IMG/VR virus record: IMGVR_UViG_3300033074_000233
Coordinates: 32,001-96,000 of that record
Direction: 5' to 3' (one strand)
Length of the DNA stretch: 64,000 bases
Origin: a virus
Lineage: Duplodnaviria > Caudoviricetes
Each line of letters starts with the position of its first letter. Position 1 is the first letter of the stretch. The notes beneath the pieces are model-generated. The model made no database searches. It was not told where the DNA came from and saw only the letters and a program-made list of their open reading frames with translations. Made by a program: the position numbers and the translations under genes. Shown piece after piece: positions 57,626 to 63,554 of the stretch.

Positions 57626-57671
57626 CTAATTTAATTCATGCTCGATATAATGCGCTACAGAATTAAATTAG
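57626..57671. promoter_or_regulatory. Face-to-face pair of putative late promoters (12-bp inverted repeat)
   Basis: CTAATTTAATTC 57626-57637 and GAATTAAATTAG 57660-57671 between divergent genes. Confidence 0.6.
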
Positions 57672-57766: not shown

Positions 57767-58972
57767 GTGCCGGTCAACTATTCATCCAACCGAACTCTAC
57801 ATGCCCGAAATACCAAATCGGTACCCGTGGCGCAGAAAAGACTTGATCAGGTTGCCGACCTAGCCCAGGAACAATACAATAATGCCTTGTCCGTAAATGG
57901 ATATGATGCGTTGGTGTATGGAAGATTAACTACAGGCCGTCGTTGCACTTGCAGCACTGTATTTAATCACAACACAGAACAAATCCTGGACGAAAAAGGA
58001 AATGCAACTGAGGAACATATTCAGTCTCTCCTCACTGGCAGTGATTTCTCCATTGAGGATTATGCCACAACTGGAAACACGTCCAGTCCGGGTTCCGTAA
58101 TTAAGGGCATGCGTGTAATTACTCCTACAGGTTCTGTGGAGAAGAAAGCACCTTACAAGCCTTCGATTTCGGAAGACGATCCGTTTGCTACCGACATGAA
58201 CTCTGTGCAGACCATTGATGACGCCTTTGCTGAGGTTAATCTTGGATCGGTCTCGGCCAACAAGTGCTCACTCTGCTACGGCAGTGGTTATGTTGGTGGA
58301 TACTCGCTGCATAATGGAAACCGTTTTGTTCTGGACTCCACGTACGCGGATAAAGTCTGCTACGGCTATGCAATCATGCAGGAGCAATACCCTAACCTGT
58401 TTGATATGGCCGATGCTTCTGGCGAGGTTCGTTTCACAGTAACCTTGCCTATTGGCATATTGTCTGTGGATCGGATACAGGTTTGGAATAACAATGTCCC
58501 GGTTAAGGGTGCTGTCGTAAGAATCGGTACCAGTCTCGCTAATTTGATTCCGCTAGATGATGCGACTTTACTGACCTACGCAACTGGTACTCCATGCTTG
58601 ATTGTGGTATCGGAAGCGGATAAGTTTTCGCATCTGGAATTGCAGTTCAATTTGTCCTCGATCCATACCTACATTGAATATCCGAGACTCACCAAAACAG
58701 GTGACCTCAGTGTTCTGGAGGCGATAGACGCGGTACAAATAATCGTGAGTCCTCTTGTCCTGAACGTGCAGCCTTGGGACATCGTTGTTGACAACGTGTT
58801 CAAGAAATCTTGGCGTGTTACCTCAAGCAATTGGTTTAACGATAGAAAAATGAACATACACGGATGGGATTGCCAAGCCCGCTTGGTTCAGCCTTACGAG
58901 GTGTTCGTAAATATGGCAGGCAGATTCAACAATGGTACGCAGTATGTATCAACTAGATTGCCGCGCTTTTAA
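57767..58972 (+). CDS. Probable virion structural (head closure/neck-like) protein
   Basis: AGGAGG RBS with GTG start; RRCTC and CSLCYGSGYVGGY motifs; late motif upstream. Confidence 0.5.
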   Translation: MPVNYSSNRTLHARNTKSVPVAQKRLDQVADLAQEQYNNALSVNGYDALVYGRLTTGRRCTCSTVFNHNTEQILDEKGNATEEHIQSLLTGSDFSIEDYATTGNTSSPGSVIKGMRVITPTGSVEKKAPYKPSISEDDPFATDMNSVQTIDDAFAEVNLGSVSANKCSLCYGSGYVGGYSLHNGNRFVLDSTYADKVCYGYAIMQEQYPNLFDMADASGEVRFTVTLPIGILSVDRIQVWNNNVPVKGAVVRIGTSLANLIPLDDATLLTYATGTPCLIVVSEADKFSHLELQFNLSSIHTYIEYPRLTKTGDLSVLEAIDAVQIIVSPLVLNVQPWDIVVDNVFKKSWRVTSSNWFNDRKMNIHGWDCQARLVQPYEVFVNMAGRFNNGTQYVSTRLPRF

Positions 58973-58995: not shown

Positions 58996-59430
58996 ATGGC
59001 TGATGATATTCCGAGTGGTGAGATAGGGACGTTGGTGGACCACTTGTTTACGGGCGGAGCGTCCGATGCAGTAATAGCGATCCTCATGCTTGTTGTTGTG
59101 GCTCTTGGATTTTCAATAGTGCAACTGTACAAACGGTTGCTAGAAGCCGAGAAGGAAAGAGTTGCACAGAATGTGCAGCATCAGGATGACCTGAGGTCTC
59201 TGAATAAGGAATACCAGCAAGTAGTAAAAGACATTACCACTGAGTACAAGGATACGCTCAAACAACTGAACGCAGACAACCAAGCATTTGTAAAAGGCGT
59301 TATAAACGAGAACAATGAAAGTGCCGATGAGATTGCCCGGGCACTACAGTCAGTTCAAGTTACGATTGCCGAAATGAAAGCGGTTGTTTCTTTCACCAGC
59401 GCTCGAGGACAGAAACATGGCACGCCTTAA
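58996..59430 (+). CDS. Single-TM coiled-coil protein (holin/antiholin-like architecture)
   Basis: AVIAILMLVVVALGFSIV TM followed by heptad coil. Confidence 0.55.
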   Translation: MADDIPSGEIGTLVDHLFTGGASDAVIAILMLVVVALGFSIVQLYKRLLEAEKERVAQNVQHQDDLRSLNKEYQQVVKDITTEYKDTLKQLNADNQAFVKGVINENNESADEIARALQSVQVTIAEMKAVVSFTSARGQKHGTP

Positions 59431-60313
59431 AGTCAGTGACCTTATCAAGTCGGAGAAAGCACCGACTGATAAAACTGGTATGTATATGTCACTCTCTTTG
59501 CCATCAAGAGTCAACCTCAAGAACGTAGCCCGTTCCTTACAGGTTGACGCTGAGGAAATGCGTGAAACCATTAACACCTGGAAACAGGACTCAGCCGTCC
59601 TTAACCAGTTGTGTGAGGTTCTTTCCGACGCCGTTATTCGAGTCGATGGCAATGGCCTAATATTTGAGTTCAACGAAGCGGCATGCGCGTTGTTTCATTC
59701 CACTCCAGCCTATATGCTTGGAAAGAATATCTCGGTCATTCTATATACGGACTGGACATCTTTCCTAGATAACTTCGACGATCACCAATCGTTCGAGCAC
59801 ATGATTACAAGGTTAGACGGTTCTTCGCTGCTGGTTTCTACAGCCTTAACCCGTGTTGGTAGTAATGACGGAGAATACATACTGGTTATTCGTGACATTA
59901 CCCAGCGTGTTAAATCCGAGCAGGATATTCTGATACTGTCGGCCGCATTAAATCAGGCTTCCGACGTTATCATCATTACCAATAGCCTTAACAAAATAAT
60001 CTTCGTCAACAATGCCTTTGTAAAGCACACGGGCTATACAGAACAAGAGGCTATAGGTCAAGACCCAAAGTTCCTGAAGTCAGGTGAGACCCCACGCATT
60101 ACTTATGATGCCATGTGGGGTCTTTTGCGTGAGAAGCGCACTTGGGAAGGTGTAGTGATAAACAAGTGCAAGGACGGTAGGTTAGTTGAGGACTACATGA
60201 TTGTGACTCCTGTCATGAACGGTGATCCAGTAAGACCAGCCTTCTACATTTCCGTTAAGCGGACAGAGTGGTGCAAACCGTATGAAACAGATCAAAGTAA
60301 CCTCAAGGGTTGA
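59417..60313 (+). CDS. Stand-alone tandem PAS-domain protein
   Basis: DAVIRVD..G.I..FNEAA..LF......LGKNI and DVIIITN....IIFVNNAF...TGYTEQEAIGQ.P..L.SG...W.G...N..KDG; no output domain. Confidence 0.85.
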   Translation: MARLKVSDLIKSEKAPTDKTGMYMSLSLPSRVNLKNVARSLQVDAEEMRETINTWKQDSAVLNQLCEVLSDAVIRVDGNGLIFEFNEAACALFHSTPAYMLGKNISVILYTDWTSFLDNFDDHQSFEHMITRLDGSSLLVSTALTRVGSNDGEYILVIRDITQRVKSEQDILILSAALNQASDVIIITNSLNKIIFVNNAFVKHTGYTEQEAIGQDPKFLKSGETPRITYDAMWGLLREKRTWEGVVINKCKDGRLVEDYMIVTPVMNGDPVRPAFYISVKRTEWCKPYETDQSNLKG

Positions 60314-60602
60314 GGAAGGCGTTGACACAGACGCCTTGCAAAAGCGTTTGCAGTCTGCTTTCAACAGGTACCGCGCTACGATAACCGTTAAGGATACACG
60401 TTCAGGTATAAACGTGCGTGTTGGCCTTGTACCTAATACTCGCCTTGAACTGTCGCAGATAAAGGAAATGTACACCAAAGTAGATAGAATCATCGACGGC
60501 ACATATTCGGATATTTTCGAGGCGCGTGCCAGCTGGATAGAAACAAATGCTACTAAGGGCCTTGACCTCGTAGTCGATTATGTATTCGAGGGAGAAGGCT
60601 AA
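60282..60602 (+). CDS. Hypothetical protein
   Basis: Tiled ORF. Confidence 0.6.
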   Translation: MKQIKVTSRVEEGVDTDALQKRLQSAFNRYRATITVKDTRSGINVRVGLVPNTRLELSQIKEMYTKVDRIIDGTYSDIFEARASWIETNATKGLDLVVDYVFEGEG

Positions 60603-60970
60603 TGAAGCGCATTGAACAACAGGTCTTGGCCAGACTAGAAACGGCCGGAGGCTTTAGGTCCCCAGCACAAATGCGTGATCTCAAAATCATCCGCAAGAAG
60701 TTTGGCGTAGTCTATTTCGTCGATCCAAAAGATGCAATGGTATTCGCCAAAGGTAAGGGCTTCAAGGTAATAAACCACGGTGGTGCCGACGCCGAGAATG
60801 GCCAAGATGAAAGTGACATGGAGTTCCTCTATGAGGTCACTGATAAGTCCGGCAACACAGTAGGTCTTATCAGCGGCACAGGCCACGAAGGTGAAGGATA
60901 TATCTGTCCTTCAGCCCAGCATTACAAGAAGTGGGAAGCCTACCAACATTCACAACCGCAACGCTCTTAA
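60602..60970 (+). CDS. Hypothetical protein
   Basis: TAATG coupling. Confidence 0.65.
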   Translation: MKRIEQQVLARLETAGGFRSPAQMRDLKIIRKKFGVVYFVDPKDAMVFAKGKGFKVINHGGADAENGQDESDMEFLYEVTDKSGNTVGLISGTGHEGEGYICPSAQHYKKWEAYQHSQPQRS

Positions 60971-60987
60971 TTCAACGGAGAAAAGCC

Positions 60988-61335
60988 ATGAAAGAGATAA
61001 CCTTGTCTTACCTGATGAAAATGCTTGCTGTAGCCAAGGCTACAGCGCAGCGCGAAGCCAAGCGTTTGCTTCCTCTTATTGCCCTTTTGGGCATTTTCCT
61101 TTATGTGGACTACGATGGCACCTATGCCATTATCTACATGCTTGGCCTGATGACGTTGATTGCCCTGTTCAGCCACGTTGCACGTCGCCTCATGTTTCCT
61201 TATCTGGACATGAAGGTAATTGCAGATAAGGCCGATGAATCACCTATGAGTTCGGCGATTGTATTTGCCTCTATCGCATTTATCATCGGCTGTTTGATTC
61301 TGACTGTGGGCGGCATGCTGAAAGGCGGAGGCTGA
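60988..61335 (+). CDS. Three-TM membrane protein (holin-like)
   Basis: GGAG RBS; three hydrophobic segments. Confidence 0.55.
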   Translation: MKEITLSYLMKMLAVAKATAQREAKRLLPLIALLGIFLYVDYDGTYAIIYMLGLMTLIALFSHVARRLMFPYLDMKVIADKADESPMSSAIVFASIAFIIGCLILTVGGMLKGGG

Positions 61336-61336
61336 T

Positions 61337-62530
61337 ATGAAGGCTTTGGCTAGAAAGAAAGCCACAACAGAAGTAGCCTCTGACGGATATAAACCGTGTC
61401 CTGAATGCGGCTCTACTTCCGTAATGCGTGAGCGTTGTCGTGGTTGCAATACTCATTGCAGAGACTGTGGCTATACCTGTTCCAGTGCTCAATGGGATGA
61501 TATTAAAGCCTCAGTTGAGGTTGCTTTCCAGATTCCAGATTGGTTCAAAGAGTTACCCAAAGCAGGTCAGGACAAGTACCTTGAGGAGCATCCGAATTCC
61601 AAGTTGGCCAAGACGTTCAAGGCGAAGCAGAACAAGCCTGCTGATACCTCGAAGTCGCCCACCAACTTCAAAGGTCCAGCAAACAAGAAGACCGCAATGG
61701 GTGATGATCCACGTAAGGAACGCAACATCGTTTCTATGATGGACAAACTCGCCAAGATGGCTGCTGATGCAAAGGCTCAAGGTACTGCTGCACCGAACTA
61801 CGACCTGTGCAAGATTTCTATTCCTGGTACCAACCTGTTCTGCCAAAGCAACAAGGGCATTCCACGCAAGGATATGCCGCAGTTGAAAGGCAAGCCTACG
61901 GCGGGCTCCTGGGCTGATAAGAACCTTGAGAAGGATAAGAACGGTGAAGTAGATGGGGAAGACGCTTTCAAGGCCTTCCTTAAGCAGTCGAACGTGAAAC
62001 TTGACAACAAGCGAATTGACGTTGCCAAGTTGAAGGCCACGCAGACTGAACTGGTTGGTCCTAAAGTTGCTGGCATGCTACAGGCCTTGAAAAAGGACCC
62101 TAAGCATCCAGGTATCACTGCACCGATATTCGTCAGCAAAGACGGCTACATCCTTGATGGTCATCACCGCTGGGCTGCTATGGTTGGCCTGAACATGGCC
62201 GACGGTAAAGTTGATCCAGTAGAAATGGACATCATTGAAGTTGACATGGGCATTGAAGACCTGGTGAAACAGACCAACGACTTTGCCAGCAAGATAGGCG
62301 TAGCACAGAAGGCTGCCAAGACTACGAAAGAAGGCGCGAGTGCGAGATTCTCCTCCGGAGACAAGGTTTACATTTACTGGTTAGCCACGGACAAGTGGGA
62401 AGCGGTCAACTACCGAGGCCCTCTAGGGAGTGATAAGGCTGTAGTAGTGAAAGATGGTATGCAGTTTACTGTAAACGCCGCTGATCTTCGGGATAAACCT
62501 GAGAAGGCTTACACTGGTTGCTGCGGCTGA
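61337..62530 (+). CDS. ParB/Srx-like domain protein with N-terminal Zn ribbon
   Basis: LKATQ.E, PIFVSKDGYILDGHHRWAA; CPECG..C.GC..C.DCG. Confidence 0.75.
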   Translation: MKALARKKATTEVASDGYKPCPECGSTSVMRERCRGCNTHCRDCGYTCSSAQWDDIKASVEVAFQIPDWFKELPKAGQDKYLEEHPNSKLAKTFKAKQNKPADTSKSPTNFKGPANKKTAMGDDPRKERNIVSMMDKLAKMAADAKAQGTAAPNYDLCKISIPGTNLFCQSNKGIPRKDMPQLKGKPTAGSWADKNLEKDKNGEVDGEDAFKAFLKQSNVKLDNKRIDVAKLKATQTELVGPKVAGMLQALKKDPKHPGITAPIFVSKDGYILDGHHRWAAMVGLNMADGKVDPVEMDIIEVDMGIEDLVKQTNDFASKIGVAQKAAKTTKEGASARFSSGDKVYIYWLATDKWEAVNYRGPLGSDKAVVVKDGMQFTVNAADLRDKPEKAYTGCCG

Positions 62531-62537
62531 GGTGATT

Positions 62538-63554
62538 ATGAAACGATTAGTAGTCCTCGCTTTCACGGAAAAGGATTTCCTGATGTGGGATAAAGCAACC
62601 CAACGTCAGTGGATGAAGGATCATCCTGATTCCAAGTTCGGTGAAGCCCTAAAGAAGGCTAAGGGTAAAGGTGCTACTCTCGTTCCAAAGAAGCCTGAGA
62701 AGACTCCAAAACTCAGTCCTGAAGAAAAGAAGGCTGCAGCCGACCGTAAGTTTGCAGAGGACATGAAGTCCAAAGCACCGGAAGATCGCAAGCACTTTGA
62801 AGCGGCTTTGAAGGATAACATCCGTATTCCACCCGCTTGGAACGGTGTTACCTATTTCGGTGCTAGTCCCGAAGACGGTATTATTGCTAAAGGCACAGAC
62901 GAAAAGGGTCGTAGCCAGAGACTGGAACTCGCAGAATACCGTGAGAAAAAGATCGCCGAGAAGCACAAGCGTATTCAGGACGACCTTGAACCTAAGTTTG
63001 ATGACGCTGTAAATAGCCTAAGAGAAAAAGCGGCAAAGGGTTCACCAGAAGCACAGGTCCTGTACGTTATCACACAACTAGGTTTCCGTATTGGTGGCAG
63101 AGGCGACGGTCGAGCCAAGACTAAGGCCTACGGTGCAAGTAACCTAGAAGCACGCCACGTTAAAGTGAAAGGCGATAACGTAGCATTCGATTTCATTGGC
63201 AAAGAGGGTCGTAGGCAGCAACACGCTATCGAAGACCCCGTTATGGCCAAGTTCATTAGGTCCCGCCTGCGTGGTAAGACTAATACGGACAAACTCTTTC
63301 CTACGGACGAGGAAAAGATTCGCAAGGTATGGAAGCCTGTTGGTAGTGAGAAGGTCCATGATATCCGTTCTGTCTTGGCCACACGTATTGCCAAGAAGAT
63401 AGTGGATTCCGCTGACGTACCGAAGACCAAGAAAGAACTGCACACGCTTATGACTACCTGTGCTAAGGCTGCCTCTGAACGTCTTGGCAATAACCCGTCA
63501 GAAGCATTGAACACCTATATTGACGCTCGCGTCTTTCCAGGAGTAGGCGAATGA
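62538..63554 (+). CDS. DNA topoisomerase IB (bacterial/poxvirus type)
   Basis: IPPAW, G.D.KGR.Q, GFRIG, F.GK, HDIR, LGN...A...YID catalytic residues. Confidence 0.9.
   Translation: MKRLVVLAFTEKDFLMWDKATQRQWMKDHPDSKFGEALKKAKGKGATLVPKKPEKTPKLSPEEKKAAADRKFAEDMKSKAPEDRKHFEAALKDNIRIPPAWNGVTYFGASPEDGIIAKGTDEKGRSQRLELAEYREKKIAEKHKRIQDDLEPKFDDAVNSLREKAAKGSPEAQVLYVITQLGFRIGGRGDGRAKTKAYGASNLEARHVKVKGDNVAFDFIGKEGRRQQHAIEDPVMAKFIRSRLRGKTNTDKLFPTDEEKIRKVWKPVGSEKVHDIRSVLATRIAKKIVDSADVPKTKKELHTLMTTCAKAASERLGNNPSEALNTYIDARVFPGVGE

Follow-up and report, generated by a model that had tools for sequence, protein, structure and literature searches.

The stretch of DNA analysed here, a window of 64,000 nucleotides, covers bases 32001-96000 of a 216-kb virus record (IMG/VR IMGVR_UViG_3300033074_000233, here G000) that is estimated to be 84% complete. 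G000 encodes a tail sheath, a major head protein and baseplate wedges, and homologs of its gene g401 occur at 29-30% identity in phiRSL1, BcepSauron, BCSR5 and Motura; judged by its gene content, the record is that of an RSL1/Motura-like jumbo myophage. On the plus strand downstream of g401, the window carries a gene for a single-pass transmembrane (TM) protein with a coiled coil (TM1, 58996-59430), a gene for a tandem PAS protein (59417-60313) and, as the third open reading frame (ORF) downstream of PAS, a gene for a probable holin (60988-61335). Wastewater, activated-sludge and digester metagenomes (three studies) hold fragments 87-99% alike, some of them inside TM1, PAS and the holin gene. 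An earlier reading of the same letters (the sequence-only reading) had described a stand-alone tandem PAS sensor coupled to holin-like membrane proteins. The window locus (W) was compared here with related phage contigs and loci (L005-L020 and others).

The PAS gene encodes a protein of 298 aa with a coil-PAS-PAS architecture, in which Pfam detects two PAS stretches (E 7e-22) and no kinase, GGDEF or helix-turn-helix (HTH) domain, in agreement with the sequence-only reading, which saw no kinase, GGDEF or DNA-binding output. Also as described there, its start overlaps the end of TM1, by 14 nt; the start codon is the ATG at 59417, which has its own ribosome-binding site. The protein consists of a variable N-terminus, a helix (residues 34-68), PAS-A (69-161), a helical linker, PAS-B (179-282) and a 16-residue tail. 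Genes encoding receiver, HisKA or GGDEF domains were not found in G000, a record 84% complete.

The PAS family comprises 20 output-less members, which are 283-333 aa long except for a three-PAS protein of 443 aa, and identities range from 93% down to ~30%. The homologs include 13 full-length proteins (93-37% identity), four more distant ones, the three-PAS version and one from a 77-kb contig; L024 and L021-L023 were rejected as generic PAS hits. In a tree with the 70 best cellular matches, the phage PAS-B domains form one clade (support 100/100). Ratios of nonsynonymous to synonymous substitution rates (dN/dS) relative to L013 are ~0.05 for PAS and ~0.03 for PAS-B, indicating purifying selection, and the GC content of the gene, overall and at third codon positions (GC3), matches the rest of the genome. 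A scan of 185,579 prokaryote genomes (GTDB) retrieved no family member, only multidomain bacterial PAS proteins, and none was found in cultured phages; IMG/VR scans with PAS, TM1 and g401 gave no matches, and near kin of this genome may lie outside the set scanned. The three-PAS member (L019:510-1841) is basal in the tree and is followed by tail-fibre-type genes, not lysis genes.

PAS-B (59951-60262, + strand) is the most conserved part of the protein, with 20 of 104 columns invariant, including W234, W243 and N249. Its best matches among solved structures are MmoS (3EWK, E 2e-32) and NifL (2GJ3, E 8e-23), with a root-mean-square deviation of 1.7 A and 34% identity to the NifL structure. Xing et al. 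2023 (PMC10468136) recognise NifL-type domains that bind flavin adenine dinucleotide (FAD; cluster 4) by a Trp on helix F-alpha together with an Asn. Both are found in 19/19 phage sequences: W234, the primary FAD determinant, aligns with the NifL Trp, and N249 corresponds to the Asn that bonds flavin O4/N3 (Aer N85, MmoS N164). The basic residue near N5 in the last strand (Aer R115, MmoS R195) falls on position 281, which is K in 18 and R in one of the 19, and the phosphate-binding basic residue (Aer R57) on position 221, basic in 16/19 (K 13, R 2, H 1); the equivalents of Aer R57 and R115 were placed by hidden Markov model alignment, with the Aer residues taken from PMC9668731. The NifL/MmoS FAD pattern that the sequence-only reading recognised in the second PAS holds at residue level (W234, N249, basic 281), and this NifL/MmoS-type pocket probably binds FAD. 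The photoactive Cys of light-oxygen-voltage domains (NCRFLQ motif) is not in PAS-B, where Pro occupies its position in 19/19.

The DIT motif ends a PAS domain and leads into the output helix (PMC4810494). It is present in 146/157 cellular domains with the Trp and Asn determinants (W+N domains) but in 0/18 phage PAS-B domains, and a loop of the MNGDP pattern, found in most phage members, occurs in 0/908 cellular domains. All members end 9-44 residues past K281. Because the usual C-terminal (DIT) exit has been erased, the signal would run backwards, to the N-terminus. On that side of PAS-B lies PAS-A (59621-59899, + strand), which ends in a DIT motif and has 3 of 93 columns invariant; it has no conserved haem proximal His of the FixL/DosP type and no conserved flavin residues, no His column exceeds 10/19, and it is likely a dimerisation or relay domain. 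The linker between PAS-A and PAS-B takes just two lengths among the 20 members, 23 and 30 residues, which differ by one heptad. This anatomy suggests a dimeric sensor that still passes a conformational signal, either towards the N-terminus or via the MNGDP loop.

TM1 encodes 144 aa with one TM segment at residues 26-44, and AlphaFold models it as one long helix (22-138) with a predicted local distance difference test score of 79. In 17/17 homologs, 0-1 K/R residues precede the TM segment and 4-5 follow it. This charge bias predicts that the N-terminus is outside and the coiled coil of ~100 aa cytoplasmic, on a side that the soluble PAS protein could reach. Indels within the TM1 family (7, 11 and 22 residues) keep the helical register, and dN/dS is ~0.09 (vs L013). 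Homologs recovered by profile search are confined to the same phage clade as the PAS family, and TM1 lies directly upstream of PAS in 12/12 informative loci (W, L005, L006, L007, L010, L011, L013, L014, L016, L017, L018 and L020), across both deep subclades. The neighbourhood survey suggested by the sequence-only reading, which had named recent truncated host capture as the outcome that would count against it, finds the linkage conserved. Since the linkage is conserved and the family is old, monophyletic and under selection, PAS is not a recent truncated capture; the family is, on these comparisons, an old, selected and phage-only one. TM1 is proposed to be the membrane anchor or partner of the PAS sensor, and the two proteins probably act jointly.

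The three-PAS member in L019 is preceded by a TM1-like gene with a weak score of 16.1 bits. An unrelated TM-plus-coil ORF scores 15.1 bits with the TM1 profile, so that TM1 scores of 15-19 bits are near that level and the L019 gene counts as architecture only. A complex prediction with two copies each of PAS (28-290) and TM1 (45-140) scored 0.23 against a mark of 0.32, in a job unlike those used for calibration, and was weighed neither for nor against an interaction. Several other identities of TM1 were rejected. A frameshift fusion of TM1 and PAS is excluded by frame offsets of 0, 1 and 2 across loci, by in-frame stops and by intergenic spacings from -14 to +51 nt. An Rz/i-spanin requires N-in/C-out topology and a paired lipoprotein, whereas the charges give C-in in 17/17, and the PHROG Rz hits are compositional and below cut-off; better spanin candidates lie at G000 100733 and 101413. 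SieB is likewise excluded by topology, its hits being compositional and below cut-off.

The gene at 60988-61335 encodes 115 aa. Two TM segments are clear (47-61 and 91-105), whereas another, short segment at 27-41 is only weakly seen in homologs. The three-TM gene that the sequence-only reading placed three ORFs downstream is at that position, with a TM count of two or three. Five of seven family members match phrog_8226 with E-values of 1e-3 to 2e-5; HHalign gives 91.9% to the annotated holins of Sonora, MW2 and YuA (gp61) and 96.8% to g290 of Yersinia phage phiR1-37, and the ESM Atlas assigns Holin_2-3 (score 0.89), with no match to Pfam PF13272. The Sonora, MW2 and YuA holins and phiR1-37 g290 each directly precede the same N-terminally anchored transglycosylase endolysin (phrog_669) that G000 encodes at 97241-98026. 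The 60988 gene is thus a probable holin, and the label of holin-like membrane proteins, which the sequence-only reading gave to the proteins coupled to PAS, suits this gene and applies to TM1 in architecture only, TM1 having no sequence match to any holin family.

In 9/12 loci, PAS is followed by a lysis gene at a distance of no more than 2 kb. The holin follows PAS directly in L007 (11 nt), L016 (21 nt), and L017 and L020 (overlapping), and at 0.7-2 kb in W, L005, L006 and L011; L017 contains a gapless g401-TM1-PAS-holin-endolysin run. In L010 (10268-11205), PAS is followed instead by an unrelated membrane gene (phrog_6637, weak) and a phage lysozyme, probably a lysis-cassette replacement. 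Also in favour of the module, the cultured phages RSL1, BcepSauron, Motura and BCSR5 keep g401 but lack all three of TM1, PAS and a 60988-type holin genome-wide. In G000, endolysin and spanin-like genes, which the sequence-only reading did not see, lie 4.9-9 kb further on the same strand, beyond the window (97241-98026, 100733 and 101413). The ORF at G000 101413-101904 (L015:13414-13905) encodes a lipoprotein whose N-terminus carries a lipobox and whose C-terminal end is hydrophobic, in outline like a unimolecular spanin, with the i-spanin-like gene at 100733 nearby. In L007 (13449-14824), as in L008 and L009, a GIY-YIG endonuclease ORF splits the endolysin gene and probably belongs to an intron.

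A late-type promoter motif, CTAATTTAAT, stands at the head of the operon (57626-57635, + strand), 141 nt before g401; a second copy at 57671 (-) points in the opposite direction, towards RuvC, so that the pair diverges between RuvC and g401. G000 has 11 copies of CTAATTTAAT, which lie upstream of the sheath, baseplate and (as a variant) head operons, and in 9/9 related loci the motif is retained ahead of the first gene of the operon. Because CTAATTTAAT heads structural operons and is kept here in nine related loci, this is likely a late operon and CTAATTTAAT would be a late promoter; of the late-motif-driven operon described by the sequence-only reading, the motif is confirmed and the promoter role is the part we infer. 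Scans for sigma-70 promoters and terminators stayed at chance level, and a second upstream-enriched motif, ATTCTGTAAA, has 10 copies in G000. The operon's first gene, g401 (phrog_21298; 57767-58972, + strand), is conserved in RSL1/BcepSauron/Motura-like jumbo phages and precedes TM1 in every locus of sufficient length. It also occurs in cultured relatives lacking TM1 and PAS, and is probably a locus marker rather than part of the sensor. Among sequencing runs with matches, none listed was an RNA run; the one RNA run checked gave a single 219-nt contig, within g401, and contributed nothing to the analysis.

A distant version of the TM1-PAS pair may exist in the cultured phage phiR1-37. The best match of the TM1 profile there is g302 (E 5e-4), and the gene after it, g301, matches the coil and the first half of PAS-A at 13.7 bits, compared with at most 7.2 bits for 2000 shuffles and 5.5 for ~300 decoy ORFs. 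The two unannotated genes (AJ972879.2 226571-227548, - strand; L038:872-1849) encode one TM plus a coiled coil and a helix plus a divergent PAS-like half, respectively. No FAD-type PAS-B is present in g301, which has no match in Pfam, PHROG or PDB and did not pass the filter of the genome search, so that its PAS call rests on the 13.7-bit profile score. Both genes are transcribed, with a sigma promoter before g302 (PMC4848604). They share a strand with the tail-fibre genes and with g290-g289, ~19 kb away. The g302-g301 pair is reasonably likely to be a distant TM1-PAS pair, as a lead and not a membership. The unannotated g290 (L026:2093-2443), a probable homolog of the 60988 gene, precedes endolysin g289 and is likely the holin of phiR1-37.

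The reading preferred here, tentative and held at somewhat less than even confidence, is that TM1 and PAS form a redox sensor, split between two proteins and tethered to the membrane, that adjusts when lysis occurs to the redox or energy state of the host. Lysis as the target of the pair is slightly favoured when taken by itself. A stricter version, in which a split flavin receptor with a PAS-PAS unit of reversed polarity directly gates the holin by host oxygen or respiratory state, with no transcription or phosphorylation step, is more doubtful. Holins trigger on membrane de-energisation, and depolarisation releases exported endolysins; lysis is therefore sensitive to failing respiration. TM1 and PAS share one operon with the holin and the exported endolysin and, to judge from the motif, would be made late. 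PAS-B, which has the residues for it, would bind FAD, whose oxidation state would track oxygen and electron flow as in NifL, MmoS and Aer. The signal would return through the linker, whose register is conserved, and on through PAS-A as far as the N-terminal helix, which would dock on the cytoplasmic coiled coil of TM1, the two genes rebuilding a TM-coil-PAS-PAS receptor. TM1 would then act, with either sign, as an antiholin-like brake or as a trigger on the 2-3-TM holin, and depolarisation would free the exported endolysin. As respiration fails, a premature burst would be avoided, or an early burst would follow.

Several observations weigh against a lysis-timing redox sensor. A nearby holin is missing over 10 kb in L018, over 5.5 kb in L019 and over 2.9 kb in L013, whose PAS is 88% identical. 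The lysis link is one of gene order, and the phages compared are relatives rather than independent samples, so that the count of 9/12 overstates independence, the loci sharing ancestry; the L010 replacement and the occurrence in both deep subclades are stronger points. The gating of lysis proposed by the sequence-only reading retains its gene context, which is the evidence for it. The adjacency of g401 and TM1 is conserved as well as that of TM1 and PAS, and the same holin-endolysin pair occurs in YuA-like phages without PAS nearby, so that the sensor is not required for this pair. TM1 has no match to BhlA (PF10960) or Holin_2-3 in Pfam, nor a sequence match to any holin or antiholin family, and a weak search found no longer, fused TM1-PAS protein. 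Within PAS-B, the ring-stacking position (Aer H53, MmoS H132, NifL E70 by alignment) is an invariant Pro, P217. Pro is also the majority residue there in cellular W+N domains (104/157), and a ring-stacking His is needed for clusters 9 and 14 only, not for cluster 4 (PMC10468136).

The same absences of a nearby holin (L013, L018 and L019), set beside the invariance of the TM1-PAS pair, favour a real membrane-tethered redox sensor with a non-lysis target. That target might be a respiratory or membrane complex of the host, the exclusion of superinfecting phages or a membrane-based step in virion assembly, and the holin would be near as a co-late gene of a conserved operon. The equally tight linkage of g401 fits this alternative, as does the location of the L019 member and of phiR1-37 g302-g301 before tail-fibre genes. 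However, the region after PAS is otherwise highly variable and the holin is nevertheless adjacent or near in both deep subclades, and in L010 unrelated lysis genes took the same slot; a non-lysis target is the strongest of the alternatives, and unlikely.

Improbable is an arrangement in which TM1 itself is a one-TM holin or releasin and PAS a soluble, redox-switched antiholin, with the 2-3-TM gene supplying another membrane protein for lysis. One TM segment with a cytoplasmic coiled coil resembles BhlA-type holins in outline, and 29/30 neighbours of TM1 in the ESM Atlas are unnamed clusters, the best three of them viral. A precedent for such an antiholin is T4 RIII, which binds the cytoplasmic domain of holin T (PMC11413866). 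On the other side, TM1 lacks a Pfam match to BhlA or another holin, a fold search among viral structures was empty, and the 60988 gene is a better holin candidate in the same operon.

More improbable again, and less likely than the sequence-only reading allowed, is a dominant-negative decoy, one that forms heterodimers with kinases, cyclases or NifL-like regulators of the host that contain PAS domains. It would account for the lack of an output domain and for the close resemblance to a type of PAS that is very common in cells, and phage interference with cyclic di-GMP enzymes is known (PMC8085984). A decoy should resemble its host partners, but the phage domains sit on a long branch of their own, with phage members only, and have a private loop seen in 0/908 cellular domains. 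Nor would a decoy explain the late operon or the strict inheritance together with TM1, and the signal-preserving linker register suggests a conformational output of its own. Finally, a functionless, recently captured and truncated fragment of a host sensor kinase, which the absence from cultured relatives might suggest, is refuted by the same architecture at ~30% identity, dN/dS of ~0.05, native GC/GC3 and the absence of family members from the prokaryote scan.

Two small soluble ORFs (106 and 122 aa; 60282-60970, + strand) separate PAS from the holin gene in one subclade only (W, L005, L011 and L013) and are absent from L006, L007, L010, L016, L017 and L020; they are not core to the module. 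After the holin gene, the window encodes a ParB-like nuclease-domain protein and a topoisomerase IB (61337-63554), which share a short repeated WF..L....Q..Y...HP module with several other ORFs. An N-terminal motif, MK[HR]IE..V..RL, begins five otherwise unrelated operon ORFs (window 60602; G000 96238, 98013, 101035 and 102652), with similar starts in related loci, and is possibly a capsid-targeting or processing tag. Elsewhere in G000, a putative CsrA-like ORF (156002) and a class II (oxygen-independent) ribonucleotide reductase-like ORF (125816) were noted by eye. Acb1-family genes, which counter the cyclic-oligonucleotide-based antiphage signalling system (anti-CBASS), adjoin type II topoisomerase in L005 (2567-3094) and L018 (3167-3700) according to precomputed Pfam assignments; G000 83374-83949 appears to hold the corresponding position.

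Lysis time sets burst size and is usually seen as a clock built into the holin, with superinfection (T4 lysis inhibition) as its sole means of adjustment. If lysis timing by TM1-PAS is correct, phages would read host respiration directly through their own cofactor sensor and place lysis time under environmental control, with a bearing on how phages behave where oxygen is low, as in sludge, biofilms and guts. With two or three genes, the module is small, and the cultured phiR1-37 may carry a distant version with the same holin-endolysin type; thus, the question of lysis timing is directly testable, with phiR1-37 as a possible test system. A search of the open literature retrieved no phage PAS protein tied to holins or a lysis cassette, and none for PAS, jumbo phage and holin combined.

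PAS-B shares sequence, fold and the W and N determinants with NifL PAS1 (2GJ3), MmoS PAS-A (3EWK) and Aer (8DIK), and the tandem arrangement of one sensing and one relay domain is that of NifL (PMC11509896). In contrast to these three proteins, the phage protein lacks a kinase-like, cyclase or methyl-accepting chemotaxis protein output and the DIT exit, its FAD-type domain comes last rather than first and has a private loop, and its proposed membrane partner is a separate protein. The exported lytic transglycosylase is homologous, and the putative holin probably so, to its counterpart in the lysis pairs of YuA/Mesyanzhinovviridae and phiR1-37, whereas YuA-like cassettes, whose holin label is an annotation, have neither PAS nor TM1 alongside. 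In T4 lysis inhibition (holin T, antiholins RI and RIII; PMC11413866), accessory proteins, one of them cytoplasmic, are likewise proposed to time lysis on a signal via the holin. There is no homology (no RI, RIII or T match in PHROG or Pfam), and T4 senses periplasmic superinfection without a cofactor, whereas the system described here has a predicted cytoplasmic flavin sensor, a probable YuA-type holin and an exported endolysin. VqmA_Phage of vibriophage VP882 (PMC8284805) is also a phage PAS sensor, with a host-killing decision that is its own there and proposed here; it has an HTH, binds the autoinducer DPO and controls qtip transcription in a temperate phage, while the present PAS protein is flavin-type and has no HTH. 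The parts of the TM1-PAS locus are thus of known kinds, and the nearest systems are T4 lysis inhibition and VqmA_Phage, neither of them homologous to it as a system.

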